NCBI GenBank assembly: GCA_030653545.1
Contig: JAURZE010000028.1
Coordinates: forward strand, 24,607-88,606
DNA from: Nitrospira sp.
GTDB taxonomy: Bacteria; Nitrospirota; Nitrospiria; Nitrospirales; Nitrospiraceae
Direction: 5' to 3'
Length of the DNA stretch: 64,000 nucleotides
In this document: positions 3,957-51,590 of the stretch, piece by piece
How the letters are laid out: each line of letters opens with the position of its first letter
Position numbering within the stretch: position 1 is the stretch's first letter
Made by a program: the position numbers and the translations under genes
Notes under the pieces: generated by a model
The model's input: only the letters and a program-made list of their open reading frames with translations
Told to the model about the DNA's origin: nothing
The model's database searches: none

Positions 3957-5711
3957 TTAGGTGGGCTTGGGGGAGGATGAACGGCCAGAGGCCTGACGAA
4001 TGGCGGCATAGAGGTCCGTGTTGATCGCTTCCTTCGGTAAGAAGGTGGTAGCCCCTGCCTCGAGCATGGCCTGCTCAATATGCGGATCGGCTTGAACAGA
4101 AAGGCCGATCACCGTGATCAATGGGTATTCTTTCAACATCCTTTTCGTAGTTTCCGCTCCATTCCAACCGGGCATTTGCATATCCATAATCACGATGTCC
4201 GGCATGAGCGTACCAGCCAATTGAAGCGCCTGACGGCCGGTAGATGCCTCCCCGACCACGCTCAGGTCGGCGTATTCTCTCAAAAGACAGTGCAGACCCT
4301 CTCTCACCAGTTGGTGATCGTCGACAATCAGTACCCGGACCGCGGTCGATAATTTTCCGTCGGAAAGATTATCGCCTGACGCGCTAGGCTGGCAGTGCCC
4401 CCCACGGATCGCGCCTTCTGAGGCAGCCGGCTGCTCCATGTCGGCCGTGGGGGCCTCGGTGCCCACGGCAACCGACGTACAGGACAGATGGAGCGACGCA
4501 ACCGTTCCCTTGCCCGGTTCCGATTGCAGGTCGAATCTTCCACCCAGGTCCATCATCCGCTCTCGAATACTCAACAGGCCGAACCGATCGGAATGATCGT
4601 TGTTCAATTTTTCGAGATCGAAGCCGCATCCGTGATCCAACACAGTGAGGATTAATTCACCCTTGGCATAGCTCATTGAAATGGCCGCCTGATCGGTCTG
4701 TCCATGCTTGATCACGTTGAACAATAATTCCCGAACCGAGTGGAAAAGCAACACCGCATCCGCCTCTGGAAGTATCAGGTCGGCTTCGCGAACAGACACC
4801 TCGACGTTCAGGAGCTTCTGTCGACGCATTTGATCGCCCAGCCACTGGAGAGCAGGGCCCAGACCGCGCTCGTACAAAGCCTGCGGGGTCAGTTCGGAGA
4901 CCAACGACCGGGTATAATCGAGAGCTTGATGGAGTAGCCCATCGGCATCCTGCAGTACCGTTCTCACGTCCGGCGCGGGCTCCTGTCGCAGCAGCTGTGC
5001 CACCTTCATCCGAGTCACGACCAGCAGCTGCGCCAGAAAGTCGTGCAACTCTATCGCCAGCTTCCGCCGCTCCGACTGTTCCGCGACTGTTAAGTCGGTA
5101 GCGAGAGCCCGGAGCCGGTCGTACGAGGCCGCAAGCTGTTGCGTTCGCTGACTGACCCGCTCCTCCAGTGTGTCGGCCAGCTGGCGAAGCCGCGCTTCGG
5201 CCTGTTGACGCTCGTGAAGTTCGTGAGCTTTCTCGCGATTGGCCGCCTCGAGTTCGGCCGTTCTCTCTACGACCCGCTTCTCCAATTCTCGATTCAACAG
5301 CCCCAATTGTTTCTGCGCTCCGGCGTATTGCGCGCGTAATCGCCGCTTCTCCAATGCTTGGCGTGCCGCCTCGCCCAAACGGCCCATCCGGTCCTTACGG
5401 AGATAATCATCCGCGCCGTTGCGCACCAACTGTACCGCTTCCTCTTCGCCGATCGCATGCGACACGACGATGAAGGGAATCTGCAGCCCCCTTTCCCGCA
5501 AACAATCCAAGGCCTCGCCCGAACTGAATTGCGGCATCGCATCGTCTGAAATAATCAGATCCGGCTGTTTATGGGACAGCTGATAGGTGAAGTCCGCCAG
5601 CGTATCGACGCGCTGCCATTGTATGGCGAAGCCGCTTTTCTGCAATTCCCGGAGGGCCAATTCGGCGTCGATCGGATTGTCTTCGACGAATAAGACGCGC
5701 AAAACACTCAT
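3957..5711 (-). CDS. Hybrid histidine kinase REC - coiled coil - HisKA_3 - HATPase_c - REC
   Basis: ATG 5711 overlaps the upstream RR stop (ATGA). It has an N-terminal receiver (VLFVEDNPID...), H-box LAIELHDFLAQ, ATPase G-boxes and a C-terminal receiver (VLIVDDHQLVREGL...IMDMQMP). Confidence 0.85.
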   Translation of the reverse strand: MSVLRVLFVEDNPIDAELALRELQKSGFAIQWQRVDTLADFTYQLSHKQPDLIISDDAMPQFSSGEALDCLRERGLQIPFIVVSHAIGEEEAVQLVRNGADDYLRKDRMGRLGEAARQALEKRRLRAQYAGAQKQLGLLNRELEKRVVERTAELEAANREKAHELHERQQAEARLRQLADTLEERVSQRTQQLAASYDRLRALATDLTVAEQSERRKLAIELHDFLAQLLVVTRMKVAQLLRQEPAPDVRTVLQDADGLLHQALDYTRSLVSELTPQALYERGLGPALQWLGDQMRRQKLLNVEVSVREADLILPEADAVLLFHSVRELLFNVIKHGQTDQAAISMSYAKGELILTVLDHGCGFDLEKLNNDHSDRFGLLSIRERMMDLGGRFDLQSEPGKGTVASLHLSCTSVAVGTEAPTADMEQPAASEGAIRGGHCQPSASGDNLSDGKLSTAVRVLIVDDHQLVREGLHCLLREYADLSVVGEASTGRQALQLAGTLMPDIVIMDMQMPGWNGAETTKRMLKEYPLITVIGLSVQADPHIEQAMLEAGATTFLPKEAINTDLYAAIRQASGRSSSPKPT

Positions 5712-6178
5712 GCTTTTACCTCTTTCTCCCCGAGGCAAAGCTCCAAGGGCACCTGATTCAGCATCATCCAATAGAGTCCCAATTGCCGGACCGCTTCGGT
5801 GAATTGAGTAAAGTCGACCGGCTTGACCACATAACTGCTCACCCCGAGCTTGTAACTCTCGACCAGATCGCGCTCTTCTTTGGAGGACGTGAGTATTACG
5901 ACAGGAATGTTCTTGGTACGCGGATCCGATTTGCACTGATGCAAGACTTCCATCCCGTCGACCTTGGGAAGTTTCAGGTCGAGCAGAATCAGCCGGGTGG
6001 TCGAGCTGAGGGGGTTCCCGGCGTATCGCCCGGTACTGAAGAGACATTCCAACGCCTCCTCGCCGTCCCGCACCACATGAATCCTGTTCGCCAAATGATA
6101 TTTCTCAAACGCCCGCAGGGTGATTTCCACATCCTCCGGACTATCTTCGATCAATAAAATCTCCGTCCCCTGCCTCAT
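5708..6178 (-). CDS. Single-domain CheY-like response regulator
   Basis: ILLIEDSPEDVE...ILLDLKLPKVDG...VVILTSS...VVKP receiver motifs with no output domain. ATGA overlaps at both ends (6175-6178 and 5708-5711). Confidence 0.9.
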   Translation of the reverse strand: MRQGTEILLIEDSPEDVEITLRAFEKYHLANRIHVVRDGEEALECLFSTGRYAGNPLSSTTRLILLDLKLPKVDGMEVLHQCKSDPRTKNIPVVILTSSKEERDLVESYKLGVSSYVVKPVDFTQFTEAVRQLGLYWMMLNQVPLELCLGEKEVKA

Positions 6179-8790
6179 GCGGTGGCCTTTCTCAAGGAAA
6201 AAAAGAAGGTGGCGCCACAGTCTATCTTGCCCTCTGCCCACACCCGCCCGCCATGGCGGTGGACGATGCGCTGGACGATCGCCAATCCTACGCCGGTGCC
6301 TTCGAAATCCTCTTTCCGATGCAACCGTTGAAATACCCCGAATAACTTGTGCGCATATTTCATATCAAACCCGACGCCATTATCCTTGATGTAGTACGTG
6401 ACCGCATCTGCGTTCATCTCGTCCGGCAGCCACCCGACTTCGATCCGAGCCTCATCCCGATACCGAGTATACTTGAACGCGTTCGTCACCAAATTGCTCC
6501 AGACGAGTTTCAAGAGGCGCCGGTCGCCGTGGCAGCAGGGCAAGTCCTGCAGGGTCAGTTCTATGGTGCGGTTTTCCTGCACGATCCTCAATTCGTCCGC
6601 CGCCTCCCGCGCTAGCTCTGTCATCGTGACTAAACGGATCTCCAGGCCCTGGCGGCCCAACCGGGACAACTCCAGCAGATCGTCGATCAGCTCGCCGGCC
6701 TGCGCGGAGGCCTTGCGGATAATGGTCAGGCAGCGACGGGCTTCGGCGTTCAAGAGAAGGCCGTGATCTTCCTCGACGATCCGGCTGAAGGCGTCGATGG
6801 TGCGCAGGGGGGCGCGCAAATCGTGAGACACCGAGTAGGAAAAGCTTTCCAGGTCCTTGTTCGATTCGGCCAGCGCCGCCGACTGTCTCTTCAAAGCGTC
6901 GTTGGCAGTCGTCAACGCCGCGTCGCGTTGCAGCAGCGACTCCTCCACACGTTTCTGATCCGTGATATCCCGCGCGATCTTCGAGGCGCCGATGATCTTT
7001 CCTTGGGAGTTGACTACCGGTGACACGGTCAGAGAAACAATTAATTCGGTCCCATCCTTGCGACGCCGAGCCGTTTCATAACGCTCGATCACCTCACCCC
7101 GCACTATCCGTTCGAGAATGTGAGACTCTTCGTCCTGCCGCTCCGGAGAAATGAGCCGAAGCACGGGGTGTCCGATCATTTCCTTTGCGGTATGCCCGAA
7201 CAAGCGTTCTGCTGCGTGATTCCAACTCGTCACGATGCCCCGCAGATCGATCCCGATGATCGAGTCGTCAGACGACGTCACGATGGAAGCTAAATTAGCG
7301 ACCGCCTGCTCTCCCTGCTTGCGGTCGGTAATGTCAATATTGACTCCGCGGACCCGCGTCGGAAAGCCGGAGGTCCCCTGGATCATCGTGTGCCAACGCC
7401 CCATCAGCCAATGCTCGCTCCCGTCCGGCCACAGCACGCGAAACTCCTCTCCATCCCGCTCGCCCGTCTCATTGGCTTCCCGGAACTGCTGGAACACTCT
7501 CGGCCGATCTTGGGGATGGACCAGGCTCTCCCACGCCGCCTGGGTGGTGGGGAATTCTCCCGGCGGCAGCCCATACAGCGCCTCCATTCCCTGACTCGAG
7601 ATGAAGCCCTCCGCCTGCAGATCGACCTCGAATGTGCCGACTCGACCGGCTTGTTGGGCAAAGCGGAGCCGCGCTTCGCTCTCGCGCAAGCCCTTCGCCT
7701 GCGCATCCCTGGTGCGGAGGGCCGCTTCATAAGTCCCCGCCAGCGCCCGCAGGTGGTGGATCATCAGCAGCGCGATTAACGTGCCGGCCCCCAGCAACAG
7801 CGACAGCGTAATGCCGTAGAAGAATTGCCCGCGCCCTTGCACCTGACGACTCCGTTCATCCCGCAATGTCCGCTCGGTGGCAAGAAAGGCGGCGATCTTA
7901 TTGCGGATGCCGTCTATGAGGTGCTTCCCCTGGTCCTGCAGCGCGAAATCAGCCTGACCTCTCCTCGAGACCGTCATCATCCTTTCGGCAAGGGCTTTCC
8001 ACTGGGCCGTCAGGTCTTGCAGCTCCTCCACCACCAAGACCTGGGGACGGTTATCGGACACCAGCACGTGTAGGCGAGCGACCGAGAGATCGATATTCTG
8101 TCTCGCCTGCTCATAGGGTTCCAAAAACCGGCGGTCTGCGGTCAACAGATATCCCCGCAACCCCGATTCCATCTCGACGAGCTGGAGAAGATGATTCTCT
8201 CCCGCCATAATCACTTCATCGGTCTGGGCCACCCGTCCGCTGGCGTCCAATAACTGCTTCATCTGCCATAACAAAAACCCGGCGATGAGGAGCAATCCGG
8301 CAACCGGCACCCCGACCGTCATGATGAGTCCGGTCCGGCTCGGCCCGGGGCCGCATACACCCCCTGCCTCCTCCCCCGCGTCGTTCACATTCGCGCGGAA
8401 GCCGGCCCCAGGCGCCGGCCGCATATTTTCAATGACCGCAATAATGACGGCGATGGTTGATAAATAGATCCCGAATCCCCACAATTCTTCGGGGCCGGCG
8501 CTGAATGCAAACCGTGGTTCGATAAACAGCCAGTTTGCGGCAAGGTAGCTGACGAGCGCAGCGAGGAGACCCGGCCCCCATCCCCCGTACCACGTTGCTA
8601 GAGCTACGAAACCGAACAGGGTAGTAACCGGGAGCTGAGGACCCATTACGGGATCGAACAAGGCCCGCAGGAGTATCGCGCCGGCCGCGCAGGCCACTCC
8701 GACACCGTATGCCCGAAGCGTGGAACGCGCCCGAGCCGGCTGCGGAGGATTTTCCGCGAGTATAGCGGAACCCGAGCTGTCACCCGTCAT
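6175..8790 (-). CDS. Membrane sensor histidine kinase (multi-TM N-terminus, CHASE3-like, PAS x2, HisKA, HATPase_c)
   Basis: Hydrophobic N-terminal segments, then a CHASE3-like stretch (ESGLRGYLLTADRRFLEPYEQA). PAS/PAC units follow, then H-box FSYSVSHDLRAPL and ATPase N/G boxes. Confidence 0.85.
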   Translation of the reverse strand: MTGDSSGSAILAENPPQPARARSTLRAYGVGVACAAGAILLRALFDPVMGPQLPVTTLFGFVALATWYGGWGPGLLAALVSYLAANWLFIEPRFAFSAGPEELWGFGIYLSTIAVIIAVIENMRPAPGAGFRANVNDAGEEAGGVCGPGPSRTGLIMTVGVPVAGLLLIAGFLLWQMKQLLDASGRVAQTDEVIMAGENHLLQLVEMESGLRGYLLTADRRFLEPYEQARQNIDLSVARLHVLVSDNRPQVLVVEELQDLTAQWKALAERMMTVSRRGQADFALQDQGKHLIDGIRNKIAAFLATERTLRDERSRQVQGRGQFFYGITLSLLLGAGTLIALLMIHHLRALAGTYEAALRTRDAQAKGLRESEARLRFAQQAGRVGTFEVDLQAEGFISSQGMEALYGLPPGEFPTTQAAWESLVHPQDRPRVFQQFREANETGERDGEEFRVLWPDGSEHWLMGRWHTMIQGTSGFPTRVRGVNIDITDRKQGEQAVANLASIVTSSDDSIIGIDLRGIVTSWNHAAERLFGHTAKEMIGHPVLRLISPERQDEESHILERIVRGEVIERYETARRRKDGTELIVSLTVSPVVNSQGKIIGASKIARDITDQKRVEESLLQRDAALTTANDALKRQSAALAESNKDLESFSYSVSHDLRAPLRTIDAFSRIVEEDHGLLLNAEARRCLTIIRKASAQAGELIDDLLELSRLGRQGLEIRLVTMTELAREAADELRIVQENRTIELTLQDLPCCHGDRRLLKLVWSNLVTNAFKYTRYRDEARIEVGWLPDEMNADAVTYYIKDNGVGFDMKYAHKLFGVFQRLHRKEDFEGTGVGLAIVQRIVHRHGGRVWAEGKIDCGATFFFSLRKATA

Positions 8791-9089: not shown

Positions 9090-11672
9090 TCACTTATCCA
9101 ACCCGGCGCCCAGAGCAGTCCCTTTGAGCTTCGCGCCCAGCGTCTCGCGAATCACTCGATAGAGTTCATCCACCGCCGCCTCCTTGGTGAGCAACAGGGC
9201 AGCGCCGGCGTGTTTCATCGCCTCCTCGTTCGCGCCACCCGCTTGCACGGACAAACCAATGACGACGGTGCCCGGGTAGCGGGAGACGATTGCGGCCGTC
9301 GCATCAATGCCGTTCATCTTCGGCATATTGATGTCCATGACGACGATAGACGGCTGCACCCGTTCGACGAAGGCCACCGCTTCTTCCCCGTTGCAGGCCT
9401 CGCCCACCACTTCCACATCAGGATAGGCGTCCAGCACCGTGCGTAAGCCCTGCCGCACCATGGCATGATCATCCACCAGGAGGACGCAAATCTTCGCGTC
9501 CTGCTGGTGCAGGTTTGAGTTTGGAGTTCTGGGTCCTGAGTTTCGTCCCTGATCGGACAACTCAGCACTCAAAACTTGCAACTCAGAACTCGGCTCACTT
9601 GTGCTGTCTACAGGCAGCATAAGAGTGGCCGTGGTCCCTTCGCCCGGCGCCGATTGCAGATCGAACCACCCGCCCAGCGCGGTCATCCGTTCCCGAATGC
9701 TGAAGAGTCCGAACTTAGAGGACATGGCGGTAGTAGAACAGCCTGCAGCAGCAAGATCGAAGCCGACGCCGTCGTCGCGCACCTCAATGCACAGCCGACG
9801 CTCCCCCTCTTGCAGACGGATGTATACGTGTTGACAACCCGCATGTTTCAGCGCATTCATCAGCAGCTCACGAACCGACTGAAACAGGAGCACCGCGCAG
9901 TCATTCGACAGGGACCCCGTCGAGGCATTGCCGATCTCGACGAGCACCATTAACCCCTGGCGCTGCATTTGTTCGCCGAGCCACTTAAGTCCGGCCGGAA
10001 GACCATGTTCCTGCAAGACCGGCGGACTCAGTTCGGCCATCAAGGTGCGACTGTAGGTCAACGCTTGGGTCAGCACCCCTTCGGTTTCTTGGACCTTCTC
10101 CACTGCTTTCGGAGGTAAACCGATTCGTTTCATCTGACCGAGATTGAGTAGACCGAGCACGAGCAATTGCGTGAGATAGTCGTGCAGTTCGTCAGCCAGG
10201 CGTTTGCGTTCCCGCTGCTCGGTAAGGTTCAGCATCGTCGCGAGTGCCCGCAAGCGATCCTGCGACTGGACCAGTTCCTCGGTGCGCTCCTTCACCACAT
10301 GCTCCAATTGGCCGGCCAAGGCGCGGAACTGCTCCTCGCTCGCGCGTAAAGCCTCCGCTTTCAGGAGGCGGTCGGTGATGTCCTGCACCGTCCCGATGAT
10401 GCGCGTGGCGCGTCCGTTCTCCGCCGCGTCCCTTTTGCTGGTGAACTCGAGCCAGCGCGCTTCGCCATCGGACCGGCGGATGCGCCCCACAAAGGCGAAC
10501 GGCTCCCGCGCCTCTAACGTCTGGGCCACGGCCTGCTCGAAAATGGGCCTATCGTCGGGATGAATGAACTCTGCGACGAACCGGGCGGCAGTGACCGGCG
10601 GGGATCCTAGCGGCACGCCCAGTATCCGATACGGATACTGGGTTTCCCACAGGACGGAATCTTCGTCGGGCCGCCACGACCAGAAGCCCATCTGCGCGGC
10701 TTCGCTCGCCAGCAGGATGCGCTCCCGGCTCTGCCTCTGCGCTTCCTCCGCCTGCTTGCGCTCGGTGATTTCCTCCACCACTGCGCCAAACCCGACAATC
10801 TCTCCGCCCTCGCCATGCACCGGATACCAGCTCTCGTTCCAATAACGGGTGGCTCCCGGCGCGAGCGCCGTCTCGCCGCTGAACTCGTGATGGAGCACCG
10901 CCTCGCCGGTCGCGAGGATGCGCTCGGTCGCCTCCCGCACTGCCCCCTCCAGCGTGGGGACAATCTCCCCCACCGTCCGCCCGAGGTGCGCCGCGACGGA
11001 GATGCCGTCCATCTCGGCGAGCCGTTCATTGATGCGCACATACCGCAGGTCGCGGTCGAAGTAAGCAAACCCGACGGGCGCACGGGTGAGCAGTGTGTCC
11101 AGCAGCCGCAGCGCGTCCGCCTTCTCCTCCTCCAGCTTCTTGCGGTCGAGGATGTCGCGGATGACCTTGATGTAGCCGGTGCCCGCGCCGTCGGGGTCGC
11201 GCAGGGCGGTGGTGCTCATCTCGACGTGCCGCTCACGGCCGTCGGGCGCGCGGTGGATCAGCTCGCCGCGCCACTCGCCGCGCTCGCGCAGCGCCGTGCG
11301 CATCGTGATTTCAGCCTCAGCGCTCGGCCAGTGCGGGGTGAACATTTCGGTGAACGTGCAACCGAGCACATCGTCGGAGCGGACGCCGTATAGACGCTCG
11401 GCGGCGGCGTTCAGGAAAGTGATGCGCTCCTCGGCGTCCACCGCGATCACCGCATCGCTGACCCGCGCGAGCATCTCGCTGCGGAAGCGGGTCTGCTCGG
11501 CGTCGAGGCCTTGCAAGGTGAAGAGCCGCGGGCCGGCCGCACCCTCCACCACGAGCGCATCGACTTCACCTTCACGGATGGCGCGAAGCGTAGAATCCGA
11601 CTCCTCCAGCCGCGCACGCAACTCCCGGTTTTCCTGAAGGAGGGTCTGAACCGTGGGGGGGGGCTTTGCCAT
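9090..11672 (-). CDS. Hybrid histidine kinase: coiled coil - multiple PAS - HisKA_3 - HATPase_c - REC
   Basis: PAS/PAC repeats, H-box LADELHDYLTQ, ATPase boxes and a C-terminal NarL-class receiver (VLLVDDHAMVRQGL...VVMDINMP...LTKEA) with no HTH. It starts 14 nt after the kaiB stop. Confidence 0.85.
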   Translation of the reverse strand: MAKPPPTVQTLLQENRELRARLEESDSTLRAIREGEVDALVVEGAAGPRLFTLQGLDAEQTRFRSEMLARVSDAVIAVDAEERITFLNAAAERLYGVRSDDVLGCTFTEMFTPHWPSAEAEITMRTALRERGEWRGELIHRAPDGRERHVEMSTTALRDPDGAGTGYIKVIRDILDRKKLEEEKADALRLLDTLLTRAPVGFAYFDRDLRYVRINERLAEMDGISVAAHLGRTVGEIVPTLEGAVREATERILATGEAVLHHEFSGETALAPGATRYWNESWYPVHGEGGEIVGFGAVVEEITERKQAEEAQRQSRERILLASEAAQMGFWSWRPDEDSVLWETQYPYRILGVPLGSPPVTAARFVAEFIHPDDRPIFEQAVAQTLEAREPFAFVGRIRRSDGEARWLEFTSKRDAAENGRATRIIGTVQDITDRLLKAEALRASEEQFRALAGQLEHVVKERTEELVQSQDRLRALATMLNLTEQRERKRLADELHDYLTQLLVLGLLNLGQMKRIGLPPKAVEKVQETEGVLTQALTYSRTLMAELSPPVLQEHGLPAGLKWLGEQMQRQGLMVLVEIGNASTGSLSNDCAVLLFQSVRELLMNALKHAGCQHVYIRLQEGERRLCIEVRDDGVGFDLAAAGCSTTAMSSKFGLFSIRERMTALGGWFDLQSAPGEGTTATLMLPVDSTSEPSSELQVLSAELSDQGRNSGPRTPNSNLHQQDAKICVLLVDDHAMVRQGLRTVLDAYPDVEVVGEACNGEEAVAFVERVQPSIVVMDINMPKMNGIDATAAIVSRYPGTVVIGLSVQAGGANEEAMKHAGAALLLTKEAAVDELYRVIRETLGAKLKGTALGAGLDK
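9241..9480. repeat. Copy 1 of a 240-bp near-identical direct repeat (REC-coding)
   Basis: 12 mismatches in 240 nt against 14459-14698. 9307-9410 is a 104-nt perfect match. The adjacent 60 nt (9181-9240) is only ~77 % identical and 9481 onward is unalignable. Confidence 0.9.
11655..11663 (-). repeat. Homopolymer C9 (G9 on plus strand) in codons 3-6 of the kinase gene
   Basis: The minus strand reads ATG GCA AAG CCC CCC CCC ACG. This is the longest G/C homopolymer I saw in the window. Confidence 0.9.
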
Positions 11673-11686
11673 GAGAAATTTCCAGG

Positions 11687-12052
11687 TTAGGTGAGAGGGC
11701 TTGCCTTCTCCCGTGCCTTGCGAAGATCCAGCCCGAGGAGAATCTTCTCGGTCTGCGACATGTCGCCGATGAAGCGGCGCAGGGGCAGCGGAACTTTTTT
11801 GATCAAGGTCGGCGCGGCGATGATCTGCTCGCCTTTGGCCAGCGTCGGGTGTTGGGAGATATCGATGACTTCAAGGTCGTAATGTCCTTGCAGGTGTTCT
11901 TCGCAAATCTTCCGGATATTCACGATCGCCCGGGTGGAATGGGACGTGGTGCCGGTGATGTAGAGCCGCAGGACATAACGGGCCGTCGCGCTCCCGACAG
12001 TCGCTTGTTCAAATTCGGCGAAACGGTCTGTGGCGGGAATCTTTTTCTTCAT
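11687..12052 (-). CDS. kaiB: KaiB (distal copy, longer N-terminus)
   Basis: YVLRLYITGTTSHSTRAIVNIRKICEEHLQGHYDLEVIDISQHPTLAKGEQIIAAPTLIKKVPLPLRRFIGDMSQTEKILLGLDL aligns end to end with cyanobacterial KaiB. Confidence 0.9.
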   Translation of the reverse strand: MKKKIPATDRFAEFEQATVGSATARYVLRLYITGTTSHSTRAIVNIRKICEEHLQGHYDLEVIDISQHPTLAKGEQIIAAPTLIKKVPLPLRRFIGDMSQTEKILLGLDLRKAREKASPLT

Positions 12053-12056
12053 GCGG

Positions 12057-12353
12057 TTACTCTTTCACCGGCTGCACGTCAAGGCCGACGAGCACGCGCG
12101 CTTCGTTCGACAGGTCGCCGATGATTTTTCTGATCGGCTCGGGTACGCGGCGGACGAGCGTGGGCACCGCGAAGATTTGGTCCCCGGCGGCCAGCTGCGG
12201 CGTAATCATCAGATCAATGATCTCAATGCGGTATTGTCCGGCGAGGTGCGTCTCACAGATGTGCTGGAGATTCGCCAGGGCCGCGCGCGATTTCGGCGTC
12301 TGGCCCGCGACGTAGAGCCGGAGTTCAAATTTTGCAGGTGGCTCCTTTTTCAT
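12057..12353 (-). CDS. kaiB: KaiB (proximal copy)
   Basis: [40 protein letters not shown]...[35 protein letters not shown] 12353 overlaps the kaiC stop (ATGA). The upstream 148 codons of listed ORF 12057..12797 are an out-of-frame overlap with kaiC. Confidence 0.9.
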
Positions 12354-14098
12354 CGGCTTCCTTTCGTCCGGCTGTTGCCGCTTTTGATGCCGCCGCGCAG
12401 GGCCGCCATGGCGCCGGCGTTTTGCTGCGTGTTCATGGTTTGCAAGGTCTCCTGGGCGATGGCAAAGTTCACATCTTCCTCCGCGGCCTCGCCCTCGGTC
12501 CGGAGCGCGGCGATCTGCGCTTCGAGGGCTTTTCGTTTGGCGGCGAGCTGCCGGAGCTTGCGCGCGTGTTCCTCCTGGCGCAGCCCGGCGGCGGCGCGTT
12601 CCTGCGCTTCCTGCGCCACGCGCGCGGTGCCGGTGAGCACGCGGTCCCCGCCGAGATACACGGCCCGGAGGTCGATGCCCGCGTCGCTCAGCACGAATTC
12701 TCGCACCTGATTCGAGTGCGCCATGCCCCGCGATTTCATCACGTGAATCAAGCGGTTGCGCTCGCCGTTGAATTCCACATTGCGTAGCAGCAGCCACGTA
12801 TCCATGAGCGAGGACACGCCGACCTGGCTATCCTCCGGCGCGGTCGCCGAGGTGCCGCCGGACGTGAGGCTGGTGAAGACCGAGGTGATTTGCAACTGCT
12901 TCACTAAATCGATGAGCCGCATCAGCGTGGGCTTCACCTCCGCCTCGCTGTCGGCGAGCGACAAATTGCTGATAGGATCGACGACCACGACGCCGGGCCG
13001 GAACGCCAGTACCATCTCGTGCATCATCACGAGATGCTGCTCCAGCCCGTGCATCGACGGGCGCGAGCACTGAATCTGGAGCAGCCCTTTTTTCACCCAC
13101 GGCGCAAGGGCGATGCCGATGGAGCGCATGTTGCGTAGCAGTTGCTCGGACGATTCCTCGTAGGCGAAAAGGAGCGCGCGCTCGCCGCGGCGGCACGCGG
13201 TCTCGGCAAACTTCGCGGCAAGGCTGCTTTTGCCCGTGCCCGACGCCCCGGTGAAGAGCACGCTGCTGCCGCGATACACGCCCTGGCCGCCTAACATGGC
13301 ATCGAGCGCCGCGATGCCGGAGGGGATGCGCTCCGTGGAGGCCCGGTGGTCGAGCTGGAGCGACGTGATCGGCAGTACCGACATGCCGCGCTCGCCGATG
13401 ATGAACGGGTATTCGTTCGTGCCGTGCGCCGTGCCGCGATACTTCACCACGCGTAGCCGCCGCGTGCAGATCTGCTCGGCCACGCGGTGGTCGAGCGTGA
13501 TCACGCAATCGGCCACGTATTCCTCCAGCCCGTAGCGCGTGATCGAGGCCTCGCCCTGCTCGCCGGTGATGATGGTCGTCATGCCGCGGTCCTTCAGCCA
13601 GCGAAACAGTCGCCGCAGTTCAGCGCGGAGAATCGCATGATTCGGCAGCCCGGCGAAGAGCGCTTCGACGGTGTCGAGCACCACGCGCTTCGCCCCGATG
13701 GCATCGATGGCGTGCCCGAGCCGGATGAAGAGCCCCTCGAGATCATACTCGCCTGTCTCCTCGATCTCGCTGCGCTCAACGCGGACGTGATCGAGCACGA
13801 TCTGTTTCTTCGCCACGAGCTTGTCCAAGTCGAAGCCGAGCGAGCGCACATTGTCAGTCAGCTCCTGCGCATTTTCCTCGAACATCATGAACACCCCCGG
13901 CTCCCCAAACTGCGTCGCCCCGCGCACGAGGAACTCCAAGGCGAGCATCGTCTTCCCGCACCCCGCCGAGCCGCACACGAGCGTGGGCCGCCCGGTCGGC
14001 AGCCCGCCGCCGGTGATTTGATCGAGACCGGTGATGCCGGTGGGCGCCTTGGAAAGCTGTGGCGGAGGAGAGATCATCGGTCGGGATAGTTTTGCCAT
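12350..14098 (-). CDS. kaiC: KaiC, double RecA-type ATPase with extended C-terminal coiled-coil tail (582 aa)
   Basis: ATG 14098 has AAGGAG 8 nt upstream. Walker A motifs are GSAGCGKT (CI) and GASGTGKS (CII). Catalytic Glu pairs are MFEEN and AYEES. A Ser-Ser pair (GVSSLMDT) sits at the position of the cyanobacterial S431/T432 by hand alignment. About 60 extra C-terminal residues relative to a 519-aa KaiC. Confidence 0.92.
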
Positions 14099-14292
14099 GA
14101 GTGGTCGCTCCTTGGAATAAGAGGAAGATCCTATTGGGACAGGGCCCCCATGAGAAACCGTCACTCTTCAACGCACCGTGGCACCCTGCCATACTCCATG
14201 GGATTGTCCCGACACGTTGTGGGCGCTTCGTGCCGGCAGGGGTCCTCGTCTCCCGAATCGCTCGATATAATTCATCCCCTGCTTCTCCTGCT

Positions 14293-17200
14293 TCAGGAGT
14301 TTGGCGGGGCCGGCTCTATACCTTGCTCCGGCACATTTTCCTTGAGTCTCACATCCAGCGATTCGCGGATCGCCTTATAGAGGTCATCCACTGCCGCCTC
14401 CTTGGTGAGGAGCATCGCGGCGCCGGCCTTCCGCATAGACTCCTCGTTCTCGCCGCCCGCTTGCACGGACAAACCAATGACGACGGTGCCCGGGTAACGG
14501 GAGACGATCGCGGCCGTCGCATCGATGCCGTTCATCTTCGGCATATTGATGTCCATGACGACGATAGACGGCTGCACCCGTTCGACGAAGGCCACCGCTT
14601 CTTCCCCGTTGCAGGCCTCGCCCACCACCTCCACATCGGGATAGGAGTCCAGCAACGTGCGCAGGCCCTGCCGCACCATGGCGTGATCGTCCACCAGCAG
14701 GACCCGAATGCTGGCGGCCGCGCGGAGTGAGGGACTGGAGGCCGGGGATACAGAGGCTACGTTTGTTACTTCGCTGGCCTCTTGGACCGCGCCGAGGGCG
14801 GCGCGCCTCGATATTCGTGCCTGCGACCCCGCCAGCGGCAACCGCAGCGTGGCCGTTGTCCCGGCACCCGGCGCGGATTGCACCTCGAAGCTCCCGCCCA
14901 GCGCCTGCATGCGTTCCCGAATGCTGAAGAGACCGAACTTCGAGGACATGGCCATAGTAGAACTGCCAGCAGCAGCAGCAGCAAGATCGAAACCGACGCC
15001 TTCGTCGCGCACCTCAATCTGCAACGTCTCCTGCCGATATTCGAGCGAAACCCATGCTACGCCCACTCCCGCATGCTTGGCCGTGTTGATCAGTAACTCG
15101 CGAGCCGATTGGAACAGCAGCACGGCTCGATCCTCCGGCAACGACAGGTCTTCGGTCTCGATCCGGACCGTCACGGCCAGCCCATGCCGTTGCATCCGCT
15201 CGCCCAGCCAGCGCAGCGCCGCCGGCAAACCAAACTCATGGAGGATCGGAGGGCTGAGATCGATCACCAAGGTCCGCGTGTAGGCCAGCGCCTCGGACAA
15301 CACCTCGTCCGTTTCTTCGACCAATTCGTCGCGTCTCTCCCGCGGCTGCGTCACGCGCTTGCTTTGGCCCAGTTTCATTTTCCCGAGCACCAAGAGTTGC
15401 GCCAGATGATCGTGCAGCTCGGTCGCCAGGCGCCGGCGTTCCCGCTGCTCGGTGAGGGTCAGCTCCGTCGTCAAGGCCCTCAATTGCTCGTGTAGCTGCG
15501 TGAGTTCCTGCGTGCGATCCGCCACACGCTGCTCGAGCTCCGCTGCGGCCTGCCTGCGTTCGGTGGTGTCGGTGAAATAGCAGACCACCCCGACCTGACC
15601 GTCGGGCAAGGTGACCCGCTGCGTTTCCCAATCGTACGATTGCTCCACGCCCAGATCGTAGCGTCGTCTGGAAAATTCAGGTGAGATGTACCGCTCACCG
15701 GTCTCCAGGGTGTGCCGGAAAATGTCCGCGACTTGTCCGCCGACTTCCGAACCCCACAGAATCCTGACGACATCTGAAAAATCGCGGCCGATCAGCGGCT
15801 GCACCGAGGCGAACGCCGGGAGGGCTCTCGAATTGATTTGCTGCACGCGGAATTGGCCGTCGACGACATACATGCCGACCGGCGCCTGTTCGATGAGGGT
15901 GGAAAACAATGTCTCGTTCTGACGCAACGCCGCTTCCACTCGCTCCCGCTCCGTAATATCGCGTGCAATCTCCGCCGCCCCGATGACTCGGCCCTCGGCG
16001 CCCTTGATAGGCGAAACGGTCAGCGACACGCCGACGAGGCTTCCGTCCTTGCGCCTGCGGACGGTGTCGTAATGCTCGGTACTTTGGCCACGTGTGACCC
16101 GCTCCAGATTACGCTTCTCCTCGTCCTTACGGTCCGGCGGAAGCAGCCTCGCGGACGGCCCGCCCACCGCTTCCTCAGCCGTATAGTCGAACAGCCGCCG
16201 GGCCCCTTGATTCCAACTGGTGATGATGCCGTGAAGGTCTTTACTGAGGATGGCGTCATCCGACGATTCCACAATCGCGGCAAGTCTGGCCCGCGAGGCT
16301 TCCGCCTGTGTACGTTCGGTGATGTCCTCGATGACGAGGAGAATGCGGTTCATCCCATTCTGGCTGTGCTCGATGCGCCGGGCATAGAGCAGCATGATGC
16401 GGCGGCCCAGGTGTTTGAAGACGTGATCCACGCGGAACTCTTCGATACTGCCGTGAGACGGCTGAATCTGCTCCAGCAGCTCGTGCAAGCGCGGGATGTC
16501 CCACTGGCCGTTGCCTAAGTCGTAGATGCGCCGGCCGATCGTCTCGGCGGGCGCCACCTGGAAGATGCGATAAAAGGCGCGGCTGGCGCGTTCGACGCGC
16601 AGCTGCTCATCGAGCACGAGCAGCGGCTCGCGCACCGTCTCGAGCGTGTCCCCCGCGAGCTTCAGCGCGGCCGCGACGTTTTGTTCGTTGCGTTTGGCAG
16701 CGTCGATGTCCACCAGGACGAGGACCGCGCCGTCCACCTTGCCGTCGAGCGTCAGGTACGGGCGCACGCGAAGAGCATGCCAGTGGCCGCTTTTGTCGCG
16801 CACCTCGCATTCCTGCTCGCGCAGGTCAGCGATGACTCCGCCGGCCAGGACCTCCAGATCGAGCGGCGATTCCCCGCTGCCGGTCGCCACGAGGTTGTGC
16901 CGGATGTGATTGATCGGCCTTCCAATATCGGCCGCCAGCAAATCAAACTGCTTTTCCGCCTGCGCGCTGAACCGGCGAATGGTCAGATCGCGCCCCAGCA
17001 ACACGATGGCGAGTTTGGCCGAGGTCTGGAGGTTGACCAGGTCGTTGTTGAGGCGGGAAAGCTCGACGTTCCGGTTCGTCATTTCCTCGTTGACCGTGGT
17101 CAGCTCTTCGTTGGCCGATTCCAACTCTTCTTTGGACGTCTCGAGTTCCTCGTTGATGCTTTGCAACTCTTCGTTGGCGGACTGGACTTCCTCATTGGAC

Positions 17201-19497
17201 GCTTGGAGTTCCTCGTGGGCGGCTTCCTGCTGCTCCTGAACGGATTGGAGATACTCGCGGGTTTCGGACAGATCGGCTTCGAGTTCAGCGACGCGGTGCG
17301 ACTCCTGCCGCGCGGTCAGCGGCCGCGCGGGCGGCGTCGGGGGCGGCGGCGCGAGGGAGGCCTTGCCCGCTTCTTCGAAGACGACCAAAAAACAGCGCTC
17401 CCGCAAGTTTTTCAGCGGGATGACCGCCACGCCGATGGTCCGGGTCACGCCGTCGCGCTTGACCCGGACGCGCTCCGTGCGTACGGTCTTGTTGCCTTGC
17501 TTGGCTTGGTTGATGGCGGCGCGCAGCGGCAGCATCAGCCCTTCGCGCGCCATCTTCAATACATCGAAGCTCGCCTTGCCAGCGGGGGGTTCGAGATAGG
17601 CCCCCGTCGGCCCGCGGAACTGCAGCACTTGCAGGTCGTCGTTGATCAGCACCCCCGGCGGAGCGAACTGGACGACGGCGATCCGATCGGCCTCACGCTG
17701 AGCGTTGAGTTCGCCGCGGAAATCCTCCGGCGGATCCACTCCCACCGGCAGGCCCCTCTTCTGGATCGGACGCGGCCGCGGGCCGCGCGCATCCAGTTCG
17801 GCCTGCTTTTTCCCCGCCAAAAGGGGAAACCCCCGAGTCGGCGCGGCCTTCTTGGAAAAGATTTTGTGTTTCCGGTCCACCGGCTCGAAGAGGTCGGTGA
17901 ATTCGCCGACGGATTCCGAGGCGCCCAGCAATAAGTATCCATGGGGTTTGAGCGCATAATGGAACGTCGGCAGCGCTTTTTGTTGCAAGCTCGGCTCGAG
18001 ATAAATCAGCAGATTCCGGCAGCTGATGAGGTCCATGCGCGAGAAGGGCGGGTCGGCGATGAGGTTCTGCCGCGCGAAGACCACCATTTCGCGCAACGCT
18101 TTGTTGATGCGGTAGCCGCCGTCCTCCTCTCTGAAAAACTCGCGCAGGCGTTCGGGCGAGATGTCCTGGGCGAGCGTCTTCGCATACAGGCCCTGCCGAG
18201 CTTTCTCCAGGAGCTTTTCGTTGAGGTCGGTGGCGAAGATCTGGAGTGGGTGCGCGCGGGTGGCCTTCCGCGCGACTTCCACGAAGGCCATGGCCAGGGA
18301 ATACGCCTCCTGGCCGGTGGAGCAGCCGAGCACCCAGAAGCGGACCGGCTCGTCGCCGCGCTGCGCCGCCATGAGCTGGGGCAGGATGTCGCGCTGGAGC
18401 GCCTCGAACGCCTCGGGGTTGCGGAAGAAGCTCGTGACGCTGATGAGCACATCGGAGAAGAGCGCGTCGAGTTCCTCGGCGTTGCCCCGGAGAAACGCGG
18501 AGTAGCCCTCCAACCCTTGCTGCCTGGTAAGGACTATACGCCGGGCGATGCGCCGCTGGATAGTGTTGGACTTATAGAGCGAGAAGTCGACGCCGCAATG
18601 ATTGCGCAGGAGCAGCAGAATTGTATGGTAGCCGTCTCCCGCGCCTTTCCCCGGAGGCTTCTCCTCCTGCTCGGCCTCGCCGCGCGCCTGCCTTCCGCCC
18701 GTCGGCGCGGTTGCGCGCCCGCCCGACGGCAGCGGCTGGTCGTCATCCTGATGCGCAATCGCTTCCTCGCGATCCTGTTCGGCGCGCGTCGGCAAATCGC
18801 GCAGATCCGCGGCGACAGACGGATGCCTGGCGATCCGCGCCAGCTCTTCGGCGATGCCCGACGGCGACAGCACCAGATCGACGCAGCCCGCGGCCACGGC
18901 GCTGCGGGGCATCGAATCGTACTTGGCCGAATCGTCCTGCGCGAAGGTGATGCCGCCTTCGGCCTTGATGGCCTCCAACCCGAGCGTGCCGTCGCTGGCC
19001 GTGCCGGACAGCACGACGCCGACGGCCCGGTCTCGCTGGTCTTGCGCCAGCGATTCAAAAAATGCATCGATCGGCCGATGCGGCGTGCGCGTCCGCGCGC
19101 GCGGCCCGAGCTTCAACAGGCCATCCACGATTCTCAGGTGAGTGTCGCGCGGAATGATATAGACCTGATTGGCCTGGAGCGCCTGATTGTGAGTGATTTC
19201 GCTCACCGGCATCCGCGTGGCACGTGAGAGGAGTTGCGTGAGCGCGCTCTCATGGTCGGGATCGAGATGCTGCACCAACACAAACGCCATACCGGTATCC
19301 AGCGGCAAATGCGTGAGCAACTGCGTAAAGGCTTCCAGTCCGCCGGCGGATGCACCGATGCCGACAATGAGCATGCGGCGGCCATTGTCCGTCCCGTCCT
19401 CCTTCCCGCGCTCGACGGCAGGGGAAGATGAACGAACCGCAGCGGACTGGCGGCGCTGTGTCGCGCGAGCAGCGGTTGTTGTGCGGCGCGGTGCCAT
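14293..19497 (-). CDS. Giant CheB methylesterase - CheR methyltransferase - coiled coil - multi-PAS - HisKA_3 - HATPase_c - REC protein
   Basis: CheB motifs are GIGASAGG, VQHL and SGTASDG. CheR motifs are LGCSTGQEAYSLA and ISCRNLLIYL. NEEL heptads follow, then about four PAS/PAC units, H-box LATELHDHLAQ, ATPase boxes and a C-terminal receiver. The start is uncertain: GTG 19593 overlaps the predicted -10, ATG 19497 is chosen, and ATG before MLIVGIGASAGG is also possible. Confidence 0.85.
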   Translation of the reverse strand: MAPRRTTTAARATQRRQSAAVRSSSPAVERGKEDGTDNGRRMLIVGIGASAGGLEAFTQLLTHLPLDTGMAFVLVQHLDPDHESALTQLLSRATRMPVSEITHNQALQANQVYIIPRDTHLRIVDGLLKLGPRARTRTPHRPIDAFFESLAQDQRDRAVGVVLSGTASDGTLGLEAIKAEGGITFAQDDSAKYDSMPRSAVAAGCVDLVLSPSGIAEELARIARHPSVAADLRDLPTRAEQDREEAIAHQDDDQPLPSGGRATAPTGGRQARGEAEQEEKPPGKGAGDGYHTILLLLRNHCGVDFSLYKSNTIQRRIARRIVLTRQQGLEGYSAFLRGNAEELDALFSDVLISVTSFFRNPEAFEALQRDILPQLMAAQRGDEPVRFWVLGCSTGQEAYSLAMAFVEVARKATRAHPLQIFATDLNEKLLEKARQGLYAKTLAQDISPERLREFFREEDGGYRINKALREMVVFARQNLIADPPFSRMDLISCRNLLIYLEPSLQQKALPTFHYALKPHGYLLLGASESVGEFTDLFEPVDRKHKIFSKKAAPTRGFPLLAGKKQAELDARGPRPRPIQKRGLPVGVDPPEDFRGELNAQREADRIAVVQFAPPGVLINDDLQVLQFRGPTGAYLEPPAGKASFDVLKMAREGLMLPLRAAINQAKQGNKTVRTERVRVKRDGVTRTIGVAVIPLKNLRERCFLVVFEEAGKASLAPPPPTPPARPLTARQESHRVAELEADLSETREYLQSVQEQQEAAHEELQASNEEVQSANEELQSINEELETSKEELESANEELTTVNEEMTNRNVELSRLNNDLVNLQTSAKLAIVLLGRDLTIRRFSAQAEKQFDLLAADIGRPINHIRHNLVATGSGESPLDLEVLAGGVIADLREQECEVRDKSGHWHALRVRPYLTLDGKVDGAVLVLVDIDAAKRNEQNVAAALKLAGDTLETVREPLLVLDEQLRVERASRAFYRIFQVAPAETIGRRIYDLGNGQWDIPRLHELLEQIQPSHGSIEEFRVDHVFKHLGRRIMLLYARRIEHSQNGMNRILLVIEDITERTQAEASRARLAAIVESSDDAILSKDLHGIITSWNQGARRLFDYTAEEAVGGPSARLLPPDRKDEEKRNLERVTRGQSTEHYDTVRRRKDGSLVGVSLTVSPIKGAEGRVIGAAEIARDITERERVEAALRQNETLFSTLIEQAPVGMYVVDGQFRVQQINSRALPAFASVQPLIGRDFSDVVRILWGSEVGGQVADIFRHTLETGERYISPEFSRRRYDLGVEQSYDWETQRVTLPDGQVGVVCYFTDTTERRQAAAELEQRVADRTQELTQLHEQLRALTTELTLTEQRERRRLATELHDHLAQLLVLGKMKLGQSKRVTQPRERRDELVEETDEVLSEALAYTRTLVIDLSPPILHEFGLPAALRWLGERMQRHGLAVTVRIETEDLSLPEDRAVLLFQSARELLINTAKHAGVGVAWVSLEYRQETLQIEVRDEGVGFDLAAAAAGSSTMAMSSKFGLFSIRERMQALGGSFEVQSAPGAGTTATLRLPLAGSQARISRRAALGAVQEASEVTNVASVSPASSPSLRAAASIRVLLVDDHAMVRQGLRTLLDSYPDVEVVGEACNGEEAVAFVERVQPSIVVMDINMPKMNGIDATAAIVSRYPGTVVIGLSVQAGGENEESMRKAGAAMLLTKEAAVDDLYKAIRESLDVRLKENVPEQGIEPAPPNS
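14459..14698. repeat. Copy 2 of the 240-bp near-identical direct repeat (REC-coding)
   Basis: See 9241-9480. Same orientation, offset 5218 bp. Confidence 0.9.
17080..17226 (-). repeat. Seven in-frame 21-bp (heptad) repeats encoding x-N-E-E-L-x-S
   Basis: Plus-strand units are cagctcttcgttggccgattc / caactcttctttggacgtctc / gagttcctcgttgatgctttg and so on. The protein reads SNEEVQS ANEELQS INEELET SKEELES ANEELTT VNEEMTN. Confidence 0.85.
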
Positions 19498-19581
19498 ACT
19501 CGAAGACCTTGGAAAAAGGGCGATTTTATCTCCGCCGCCAAGGGAAGGCAATGCCTCCCCACGTTGTCTCCGCGGCTCTTC

Positions 19582-19626
19582 ACCATACAACACCAGCAGA
19601 TCGCGTCCCCTAGGGAAATCCCTAGT
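19582..19626 (-). promoter_or_regulatory. Candidate operator box (palindrome CTAGGGAAATCCCTAG, 19610-19625) plus -10-like TATGGT
   Basis: The 25-nt box 19602-19626 is 23/25 identical to 8864-8888. On the minus strand TATGGT (19582-19587) follows after 14 nt. The box lies about 105-130 nt upstream of ATG 19497. Confidence 0.4.
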
Positions 19627-50830: not shown

Positions 50831-51373
50831 TCACAATGCCAGATCGCCGTATTCCGTCGGCTCTTCCGAATGAGACCGGCGCTTCCTGCCGCCCATTTGC
50901 TTCATAATGAGCTCGATCGCCTCTTCCGGAGAGCCGGCTGCAGAGACGAGGCGTTTGCCCAGCTTGCGGAAGAACGCCACATCGGCCGGAGCGGCGTCCA
51001 CAAGAATCACGGGCTTCCCGGCTTTCACCGCCAACGCGACTTCAGACACCGTGCCAGATCCACTTAGACCGCACGCCACCACCACATCACTCGTGAGCAC
51101 GTTGATGTTGTTACGGCCGCTGCCCATTTCCGTAATGATCGGCACATCGACATGACACGACACCCGGTCCTTCGCCGTGGGCAAAATTCCCACCGTCAGG
51201 CTCCCGCCGACTCGCTTCGCTCCCTCACAGGCGGCATCCATGACACCCAGGTCGCGTCCTCCGGTAAGCACCACCCAGCCGCGCCGGGCGATAAATTCGC
51301 CGAGTACCCGCGCGTTATCCAGATCTTTCTTCTTCGCCTTGGCCGGCCCCATTACACCCACTATGAATCGCAT
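50831..51373 (-). CDS. TIGR00725 / LOG-like (SLOG) family protein
   Basis: MRFIVGVMGP...VVLTGGRDLGVMDAA...GILP...SGRNNINV...GSGTVSEVA. GGAGGAG RBS. Confidence 0.7.
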   Translation of the reverse strand: MRFIVGVMGPAKAKKKDLDNARVLGEFIARRGWVVLTGGRDLGVMDAACEGAKRVGGSLTVGILPTAKDRVSCHVDVPIITEMGSGRNNINVLTSDVVVACGLSGSGTVSEVALAVKAGKPVILVDAAPADVAFFRKLGKRLVSAAGSPEEAIELIMKQMGGRKRRSHSEEPTEYGDLAL

Positions 51374-51590
51374 CGCTCCTCCGCTCCAGACTGTCTCGAT
51401 TAAACTCGTGATGCTGTCAGTGTGACATCGGCAGGGGTCCGATAGGTCCAGGCCGCCTTGACCTGCCCGTCGATCATACGCCCACAATAAATCGCCTCGC
51501 TCCTCCGCTTCAGACTACTCTGATCAAAATCGTGATGCCGTCAGCGTGATGTCGGCATAGGTCCAGGCCGACTTGAACTGCCCGTCGATC
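51357..51590. repeat. Tandem ~124-bp duplication of a gene junction
   Basis: Copy A is 51357-51475 and copy B is 51481-51590. They are ~87 % identical, with a 9-nt indel. Copy B holds the real 3' end of the TPR gene. Copy A holds the real RBS and start of the TIGR00725 gene. Confidence 0.85.

Follow-up and report, generated by a model that had tools for sequence, protein, structure and literature searches.

Why should two distantly related histidine kinases, encoded on either side of a kaiC-kaiB-kaiB cluster, carry receiver domains whose N-terminal two-thirds are almost identical in DNA sequence? The question is raised by a 64,000-nucleotide (nt) stretch of a Nitrospira sp. metagenome contig (JAURZE010000028.1, positions 24,607 to 88,606), here termed the window, whose positions are used throughout. 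The two genes, kinase A downstream and kinase B upstream of the kai genes, share a tract of high identity in their receiver-coding 3′ ends. The original prediction for this locus, made from the letters alone, read the tract as recent or ongoing gene conversion that homogenizes exactly the surface with which both receivers fit a common partner. We find that the tract very probably reflects recent, repeated and non-reciprocal homologous recombination (ectopic gene conversion) between the receiver-coding ends of A and B, a reading that rests on sequence comparison. A common partner is a separate matter and is weighed below.

The two copies of the tract (Table 1) lie in the same orientation at an offset of 5218 nt and differ at 12 of 240 positions (9279, 9291, 9306, 9411, 9420, 9428, 9437, 9444, 9446, 9465, 9471 and 9480 in the A copy). 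The longest perfect run between A and B is the 104-nt core, and both counts are exactly those first reported. Ten of the 12 differences are synonymous, and the remaining two change amino acids (V746L and A749S). Aligning the window to itself by blastn recovers the pair as 9124-9491 versus 14342-14709 at 88.6% identity over 368 nt, and the same pair is returned by a repeat search. A weaker blastn match of 68.6% runs across the kinase cores, which are 62% identical in protein sequence, although identity rises locally to 85-91% in the C-terminal ATPase part; the initial estimate of 75-80% for the cores was too high. The tract is therefore discrete: identity reaches 95% across its 240 nt and 100% within the 104-nt core, but only 62-69% in the kinase core and 27% (28 of 103 positions) in the linker. 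Its linker-side edge is abrupt because homology ends there, the linkers being non-homologous. The opposite edge is graded, with identity falling from 95% to 80% and then to the 77% anticipated for the adjacent 60 nt (46 of 60 positions at 9181-9240), so that the description of a sharp 240-bp tract holds on the linker side only.

Synonymous sites were profiled by codon-aligned Nei-Gojobori estimates of synonymous divergence (dS) along A versus B. Within the tract dS collapses to 0-0.2 (9225-9434). Over most of the DHp domain and the N-terminal ATPase part, by contrast, it ranges from about 1 to values too saturated to measure. Intermediate values are found in the rest of the receiver (0.5-0.7) and in the C-terminal part of the ATPase domain (0.2-0.4). 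As a control for codon usage, we took the positions at which both genes encode the same residue, counted how many use the same codon, and set these counts against expectations from the window's own codon usage. In the N-terminal part of the receiver (REC N-part), 64 of 73 such codons are identical where 29.5±4.1 are expected (z = 8.4), and codon bias therefore cannot explain the tract. The DHp domain together with the N-terminal ATPase part lies much closer to expectation (43/94, expected 34.1, z = 2.0). The C-terminal part of the receiver (21/28, expected 10.8, z = 4.0) and the C-terminal ATPase part (36/49, expected 17.7, z = 5.6) also carry excess synonymous identity, which marks the tract, at the level of sequence, as the youngest layer of nested exchanges and not a single isolated block. 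The ATPase segment contains a second zone of raised identity (79-91% at the nucleotide level), also found in the repeat search, in which A, B and their orthologues A1 and B1 from the related contig L081 are about equally similar to one another. The distinction between the A and B lineages collapses in this zone, which is probably an older exchange.

The kinases themselves have separate histories. A database search with the histidine kinase-receiver (HK-REC) region of A returns a large family whose best match is only 73% identical and whose members, where they carry taxon names, are all from Nitrospira, Nitrospiraceae or Nitrospirales. The kinase core of A is closest to protein P0001 (80%) and that of B to P0025, P0048 and P0052 (79-80%), against 62% between A and B. 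Judged by these identities, the two cores are anciently separated sub-lineages with orthologues of their own elsewhere. The REC N-parts, here the first 80 residues, are mutual best matches at 96% identity, against at most 85% to anything else among 5.8 billion proteins, and over the last 38 receiver residues A and B are not mutual best matches. L081 holds orthologues of both kinases, separated by another kinase and without kai genes between them. Nucleotide identity in the REC N-part is 94.2% for A-B and 88.8% for A1-B1, against 80.8% for A-A1 and 84.2% for B-B1, and at third codon positions the corresponding values are 87.5% and 80% against 62.5% and 72.5%. Because the within-genome pairs are closer than the orthologues in both the window and L081, each genome appears to have homogenized its own pair, and on these alignments the roughly 80 N-terminal receiver codons group by genome and not by orthology. 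Nucleotide states of the receiver that are shared by a pair and found in no other unit number seven for A and B, five for A1 and B1, and zero for every orthologue pair.

Two further relatives show that such exchange is neither confined to the window nor obligatory. In L086, the receivers of U6 (REC 7134-7487) and A6 (REC 11414-11767), which flank kaiC-kaiB-kaiB, have three private shared states and a common micro-tract, EIVGEACNG, in place of which A5 of L085, 95% identical to A6, has EVVGEAWNG. The micro-tract looks like a very recent short conversion. L087 has the architecture of the window (CheB/CheR kinase, kaiC, kaiB, kaiB, PAS kinase) in matching gene order, yet the N-parts of its two kai-flanking receivers share only 72% identity (55% at third positions), with one short patch of 82-93% at the junction of linker and receiver. 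The N-terminus of the receiver is thus not intrinsically forced to identity, nor does a position flanking the kai genes require homogenization. A GENECONV-type test, as the original prediction proposed, was run with our own Sawyer-type permutation of polymorphic sites, which assumes that sites are exchangeable. For A-B, p is at most 0.0005 whether all sites or third positions are used; for A1-B1 it is at most 0.0005 with all sites and 0.003 with third positions. Restricted to third positions within the receiver, p is 0.009 for A-B and 0.035 for A1-B1.

Searches for further close relatives returned little. A KaiC-anchored genome scan returned 80 loci, none with both flanking kinases; the best KaiC matches (85%) sit in other contexts, and KaiC neighborhoods are too fluid for anchoring. 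Among JGI metagenome contigs there was no match to the exact 58-nt core, nor to the core pattern with free third codon positions, and a look-up of the exact kinase A protein found no entry.

The repeat is reproduced in read-derived data. Run X1, from the groundwater metagenome that is the source of the window, contains 98% of the window's sampled words. Its unitigs are read-derived de Bruijn sequences, in which a repeat longer than k hides the junctions, and although they break at the repeat they match both copies and each of the four unique flanks without a single difference. Depth is 39.8 in the shared 173-nt unitig and 26-30 in the flanks; two copies should give about 41 and three about 55. 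Run X3, a wetland sample, contains a related population that is 90-97% identical in this region and has its own shared unitig of 116 nt (9292-9407 = 14510-14625) at 21.3x against 10-13x in the flanks. The ends of the perfect core differ between the two populations, 9292-9407 in X3 versus 9307-9410 in the window. Both X3 copies have G at 9351/14569 where both window copies have C, the X3 A copy shows the B state at 9197, 9201, 9212, 9213, 9237, 9306, 9411 and 9465, and the two X3 copies differ at about 17 of 240 positions. These sequences show a real repeat that recurs in an independent sample and has been altered since the populations separated. The original prediction of recent or ongoing conversion is thus supported by the synonymous profile, the conflict between genome and orthology, the permutation test, the L081 pair, and the shifted ends and covarying site in X3. 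That conversion is still ongoing is supported, but not overwhelmingly so.

We propose that RecA-type ectopic conversion would act here between closely spaced, direct paralogous segments 5.2 kb apart. Conversion would be seeded in receiver sequence that was already conserved. Upstream, heteroduplex would be blocked by the non-homologous linker, and downstream the ends would vary between events, giving the graded edge. Repetition over time would leave older, decayed layers in the rest of the receiver and in the C-terminal ATPase part. Such conversion could be near-neutral, since by analogy with other hybrid kinases a tethered receiver would tolerate replacement by that of its paralogue. Proximity and the prior conservation of the receiver would then suffice, we infer, to explain where conversion occurs, with no need of a common partner.

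Several points weigh against this account. Donor and recipient cannot be told apart because the nearest outgroup pair, that of L081, is itself homogenized, and only unitig depth speaks against a common donor in the form of a third, unseen paralogue. The receiver is in general more conserved than the kinase core, so that the permutation confined to the receiver (p = 0.009) is the weaker test. All comparison sequences are metagenome contigs, and in those from the ENA series ERZ25039xxx (L081, L083, L084 and L087) many genes are split into adjacent fragments, including CheB/CheR kinases and the kaiC of L087. The splits look like frameshift errors of long-read assemblies, in which polishing might blur paralogues, and the gene calls on these contigs call for caution. 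Finally, the covarying evidence for conversion after the population split comes from one site.

To place the tract on the protein, we used an AlphaFold (AF2) model of the A receiver, which has a predicted local distance difference test (pLDDT) score of 91.5 and a canonical fold of five strand-helix pairs. The tract begins at strand 1 and ends in the loop that joins strand 4 to helix 4. As originally described, it encodes the first 80 or so residues of the receiver, with the acidic pair DD and the phospho-acceptor Asp in VVMDINMP, and strand 4 is included. The 104-nt core takes in strand 2, helix 2, strand 3 (which bears the phospho-acceptor Asp), the active-site loop and the start of helix 3. 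Helix 1 (9429-9464), usually the main partner-recognition helix of receivers, lies outside the perfect core and holds two of the three amino-acid differences between the N-terminal parts of the receivers. The claim that conversion homogenizes exactly the partner-binding surface is not supported by this layout. The part comprising helix 4, strand 5 and helix 5 shows ordinary family-level divergence. Residues D10, D11, D56, S84 and K106 are invariant in a 30-sequence alignment, and the closest PDB sequence matches of the receiver include NarL, VraR and DesR. Pseudo-receivers of the CikA type are recognized by missing catalytic residues, and here the full set of DD, Asp, Ser and Lys is present.

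The best of the alternatives, although unlikely, is that conversion tracts are kept by selection because both receivers dock to or phosphorylate one shared partner, be it KaiB, KaiC, a common Hpt protein or a response regulator. The two kinases flank kaiC-kaiB-kaiB, the kai-flanking pair of L086 has its own micro-tract and three private states, and the phosphorylation site falls inside the tract. A precedent for contact between a receiver fold and KaiB exists in the CikA pseudo-receiver of the cyanobacterial clock, which docks on KaiB. Against a shared partner stand L087, where the same architecture goes with receivers only 72% identical in the N-part, and L081, which homogenizes its pair without kai genes between the kinases; on sequence, both argue against a common partner as a general rule. 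Helix 1, with its two of three amino-acid differences, lies outside the perfect core, the excess identity is mostly synonymous and so is not explained by selection on a protein surface, and no Hpt gene was found among the neighboring open reading frames (ORFs) scanned. It is nonetheless possible that both kinases present interchangeable phospho-acceptor modules to the same downstream protein. A more specific form, to which we give slightly less credence still, holds that selection keeps conversion going because the CheB/CheR-fused kinase and the PAS kinase need interchangeable modules for one Kai-linked partner, such as fold-switched KaiB, KaiC, or a single phosphotransfer protein. If this were true, gene conversion would let two inputs co-evolve with a single timing module.

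Gene conversion from a different source is less probable again. A third paralogue or a foreign allele might have overwritten each gene separately, and the family is both large and visibly mosaic. Within the kinase core of A (9588-10307), the DHp region is closest to L087 and to A3 of L083 (89% at the nucleotide level, dropping to 66% in the next segment for A3; permutation p = 0.004 for the A-A3 run). The N-terminal ATPase part of A is closest to A1 of L081 (87%, with 75% in DHp), and the linker of A resembles those of B1 and B2 (L081 and L082) and of A4 (L084), not that of B. Kinase A looks like a mosaic, and the whole family like a recombining set of modules. A third donor is opposed by the depth of the shared-core unitig in X1, which fits two copies and not three, and by the finding that none of the 5.8 billion proteins searched is more than 85% identical to the REC N-part. 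Such an event would in any case still be gene conversion and would differ only in its donor.

Purifying selection with codon bias could also be invoked, with no recombination and the receiver N-terminus as nothing more than the family's best-conserved stretch, but this reading is very improbable. The family consensus is strong here (VLLVDDHAMVRQGLR, MDINMPKMNGI), and unconverted pairs reach 84-91% nucleotide identity over the MDINMPKMNG motif. This does not account for 64 of 73 identical codons against 29.5 expected (z = 8.4), for an A-B difference at 12.5% of third positions in a segment where orthologues differ at 30-38%, for the 72% identity of the L087 pair, or for the grouping by genome in two lineages. 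Least credible of all is an assembly artefact, whether a collapsed or chimeric repeat or one paralogue overwritten with the other during polishing. The DNA does come from a metagenome and X1 contigs break exactly at the repeat, but the independent unitigs with all four flanks, a depth that fits two copies, the same two-copy structure in the independent X3 sample, 12 remaining differences, and a gene order matching L087 exclude the artefact that the original prediction had itself raised. The possibility that the core harbors an RNA or a mobile element was likewise rejected, as the core is in-frame, conserved receiver coding sequence whose third positions are unconserved in distant relatives.

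Recombination between the direct repeats was also predicted to delete the intervening 5.2 kb, and with 104 nt of perfect identity such a deletion is mechanically sound in principle. It would remove kaiC-kaiB-kaiB and most of kinase A and leave a chimeric B/A receiver. No joint of this 5218-bp deletion appears among the de Bruijn contigs of the runs, in which a repeat longer than k would hide it, so that this does not speak against its occurrence. The kai cassette is present in L085, L086 and L087 and absent between the same kinases in L083. Comparison of L087 (11338-14627) with L083 (9837-10098) reveals flanks that are about 89-90% identical around a 3.3-kb segment that differs. The L087 segment consists of kaiC-kaiB-kaiB and the first 0.9 kb of the A-type kinase gene, and L083 is without both; its A-type gene retains the start codon region and is without about 285 residues of PAS domains. 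The difference indicates that the cassette was gained or lost between these kinases, and not via a junction between the two receivers. A simple receiver-receiver deletion was rejected as the reason why L083 lacks the kai genes, as both kinases survive and the junction lies after the B stop codon and inside the N-terminal region of A. The L083 spacer that stands in place of the cassette (9826-10040) contains a degraded receiver relic, in which a fragment resembling helix 2 to strand 3 (85% to B7) is joined directly to one resembling helix 4 to helix 5 (…GENEVAKSRAGPALLLTTGEAGNELYRAIRG). The relic suggests, by its sequence, past rearrangements involving receiver copies.

The features of the locus are collected in Table 1. 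HisKA_3, HATPase_c and Response_reg are all above Pfam cut-offs within one protein for both A and B. The N-terminus and the HK-REC region of kinase A match kinases 3′ of kaiC-kaiB-kaiB in L085, L086 and L087, and kinase A is the positional equivalent of the PAS/HK (histidine kinase) gene that follows kaiC-kaiB in other bacteria. Alongside KaiB and a same-strand histidine kinase, the locus encodes a double-domain KaiC that is extended at its C-terminus. The best PDB sequence match of KaiC is 8dba/8fwi, which we take to be R. sphaeroides KaiC, aligned over residues 15-570 with the tail included. No KaiA was found among the 17 window ORFs scanned against Pfam. A tandem kaiB pair follows kaiC in the window and in the three related contigs L085, L086 and L087, and on this sequence evidence the kaiB duplication is conserved within the lineage.

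Table 1. Coordinates of the kinase and kai features in the window, with the shared segments.
Feature	Positions	Strand	Description	Basis
High-identity tract, copy A (95%)	9241-9480	-	REC strand 1 to strand 4; aa 731-811 of kinase A	
High-identity tract, copy B	14459-14698	-	perfect core 14525-14628	X1 unitig 14456-14628 with 0 differences
104-nt perfect core, copy A	9307-9410	-	aa 755-789	
Second zone of raised A-B identity, kinase A copy	9613-9774	-	C-terminal part of ATPase domain; partner 14837-14998	
Kinase A	9090-11672	-	860 aa: coiled-coil, 3 PAS, HisKA_3, HATPase_c, C-terminal receiver	translation, Pfam
REC domain of kinase A, NarL-like	9150-9485	-	aa 730-841	Pfam Response_reg
Linker of kinase A	9498-9600	-	unalignable with B linker	
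kaiB, second copy	11687-12052	-	121 aa	Pfam KaiB 1.3e-25
kaiB, first copy	12057-12353	-	98 aa from ATG at 12353; adjoins kaiC stop	Pfam KaiB 7e-24; start mapping
kaiC with C-terminal extension	12350-14098	-	582 aa from MAKLSRP	Pfam KaiC 5.9e-107
Kinase B	14293-19593	-	up to 1766 aa: CheB methylesterase, CheR methyltransferase, PAS_10, several PAS, HisKA_3, HATPase_c, C-terminal receiver	translation, Pfam
REC domain of kinase B	14365-14703	-	aa 1631-1743	Pfam Response_reg

Further kinases lie 3′ of kinase A on the same strand, namely a CHASE3-PAS-HisKA protein (6175-8790) and a third HisKA_3 hybrid with two receiver-domain matches (3957-6047). The C-terminal receiver of this hybrid is only 47% identical to that of A, which makes it a nearby paralogue outside the exchange. 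Within kinase B, between CheR and PAS_10, five overlapping 63-nt copies at 21-nt spacing (17062-17208) encode a heptad-like acidic repeat (…EELQASNEEVQSANEELQSINEELETSKEELESANEELTTVNEEM…) that presumably forms a coiled coil. Elsewhere in the window, a tandem-like direct repeat (51335-51475 versus 51454-51590, 77.6% over 147 nt) is found at the junction of two minus-strand ORFs.

The kai genes and their neighbors resemble the kaiC-kaiB-PAS/HK operons of the purple bacteria Rhodopseudomonas palustris and Rhodobacter sphaeroides, in which kaiC is followed on the same strand by kaiB and a PAS histidine kinase (PMC4794148). Unlike those operons, the locus has two tandem kaiB genes, its downstream kinase is a HisKA_3 hybrid with a C-terminal NarL-type receiver, and another hybrid kinase, a fusion with CheB and CheR, is encoded upstream of kaiC. 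The pseudo-receivers of clock kinases form a second point of comparison (reviewed in PMC12632262). Like CikA, kinases A and B are histidine kinases in a Kai context that end in a domain with the receiver fold. Unlike CikA, they retain the full catalytic set and are thus not pseudo-receivers, and contact with KaiB is hypothetical here. For Kai biology, a single partner for both kinases is accordingly an idea to consider and not evidence. As the near-identity at this locus is recombinational, it should not be taken as functional constraint.

A and B also belong with the hybrid histidine kinases in which the receiver is covalently attached to its own kinase. Capra, Laub and colleagues are said to have found that spatial tethering in hybrid kinases relaxes the specificity between kinase and receiver. 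A tethered receiver should therefore tolerate a swap for that of its paralogue, which fits neutral or near-neutral conversion. The literature on tethered receivers, and that on paralogous two-component systems generally, stresses divergence that insulates pathways from one another. The present locus contrasts with that picture and points to domain-limited concerted evolution in signaling proteins, in which the phospho-acceptor modules of kinases with different inputs are repeatedly made alike and the sensing and catalytic parts stay apart. The expanded Nitrospira-like kinase family looks like a recombining mosaic, which matters wherever orthology or specificity is deduced from receiver sequences.

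Ectopic gene conversion and concerted evolution are well established for bacterial paralogues such as tufA/tufB, the rRNA operons, the pilE/pilS system of Neisseria, and the opa genes. A full-text literature search returned no description of either process for the receiver domains of bacterial kinases. The tract adds a new case to the known process of gene conversion among bacterial paralogues and has the familiar marks of the classic cases: a discrete tract in diverged genes, lost synonymous divergence, grouping by genome, and tract ends that vary between lineages. It departs from them in that conversion covers only part of one domain in multidomain signaling proteins whose cores are 62% identical, in that one side is bounded by a non-homologous linker, and in having no evident role in antigenic variation or gene dosage.

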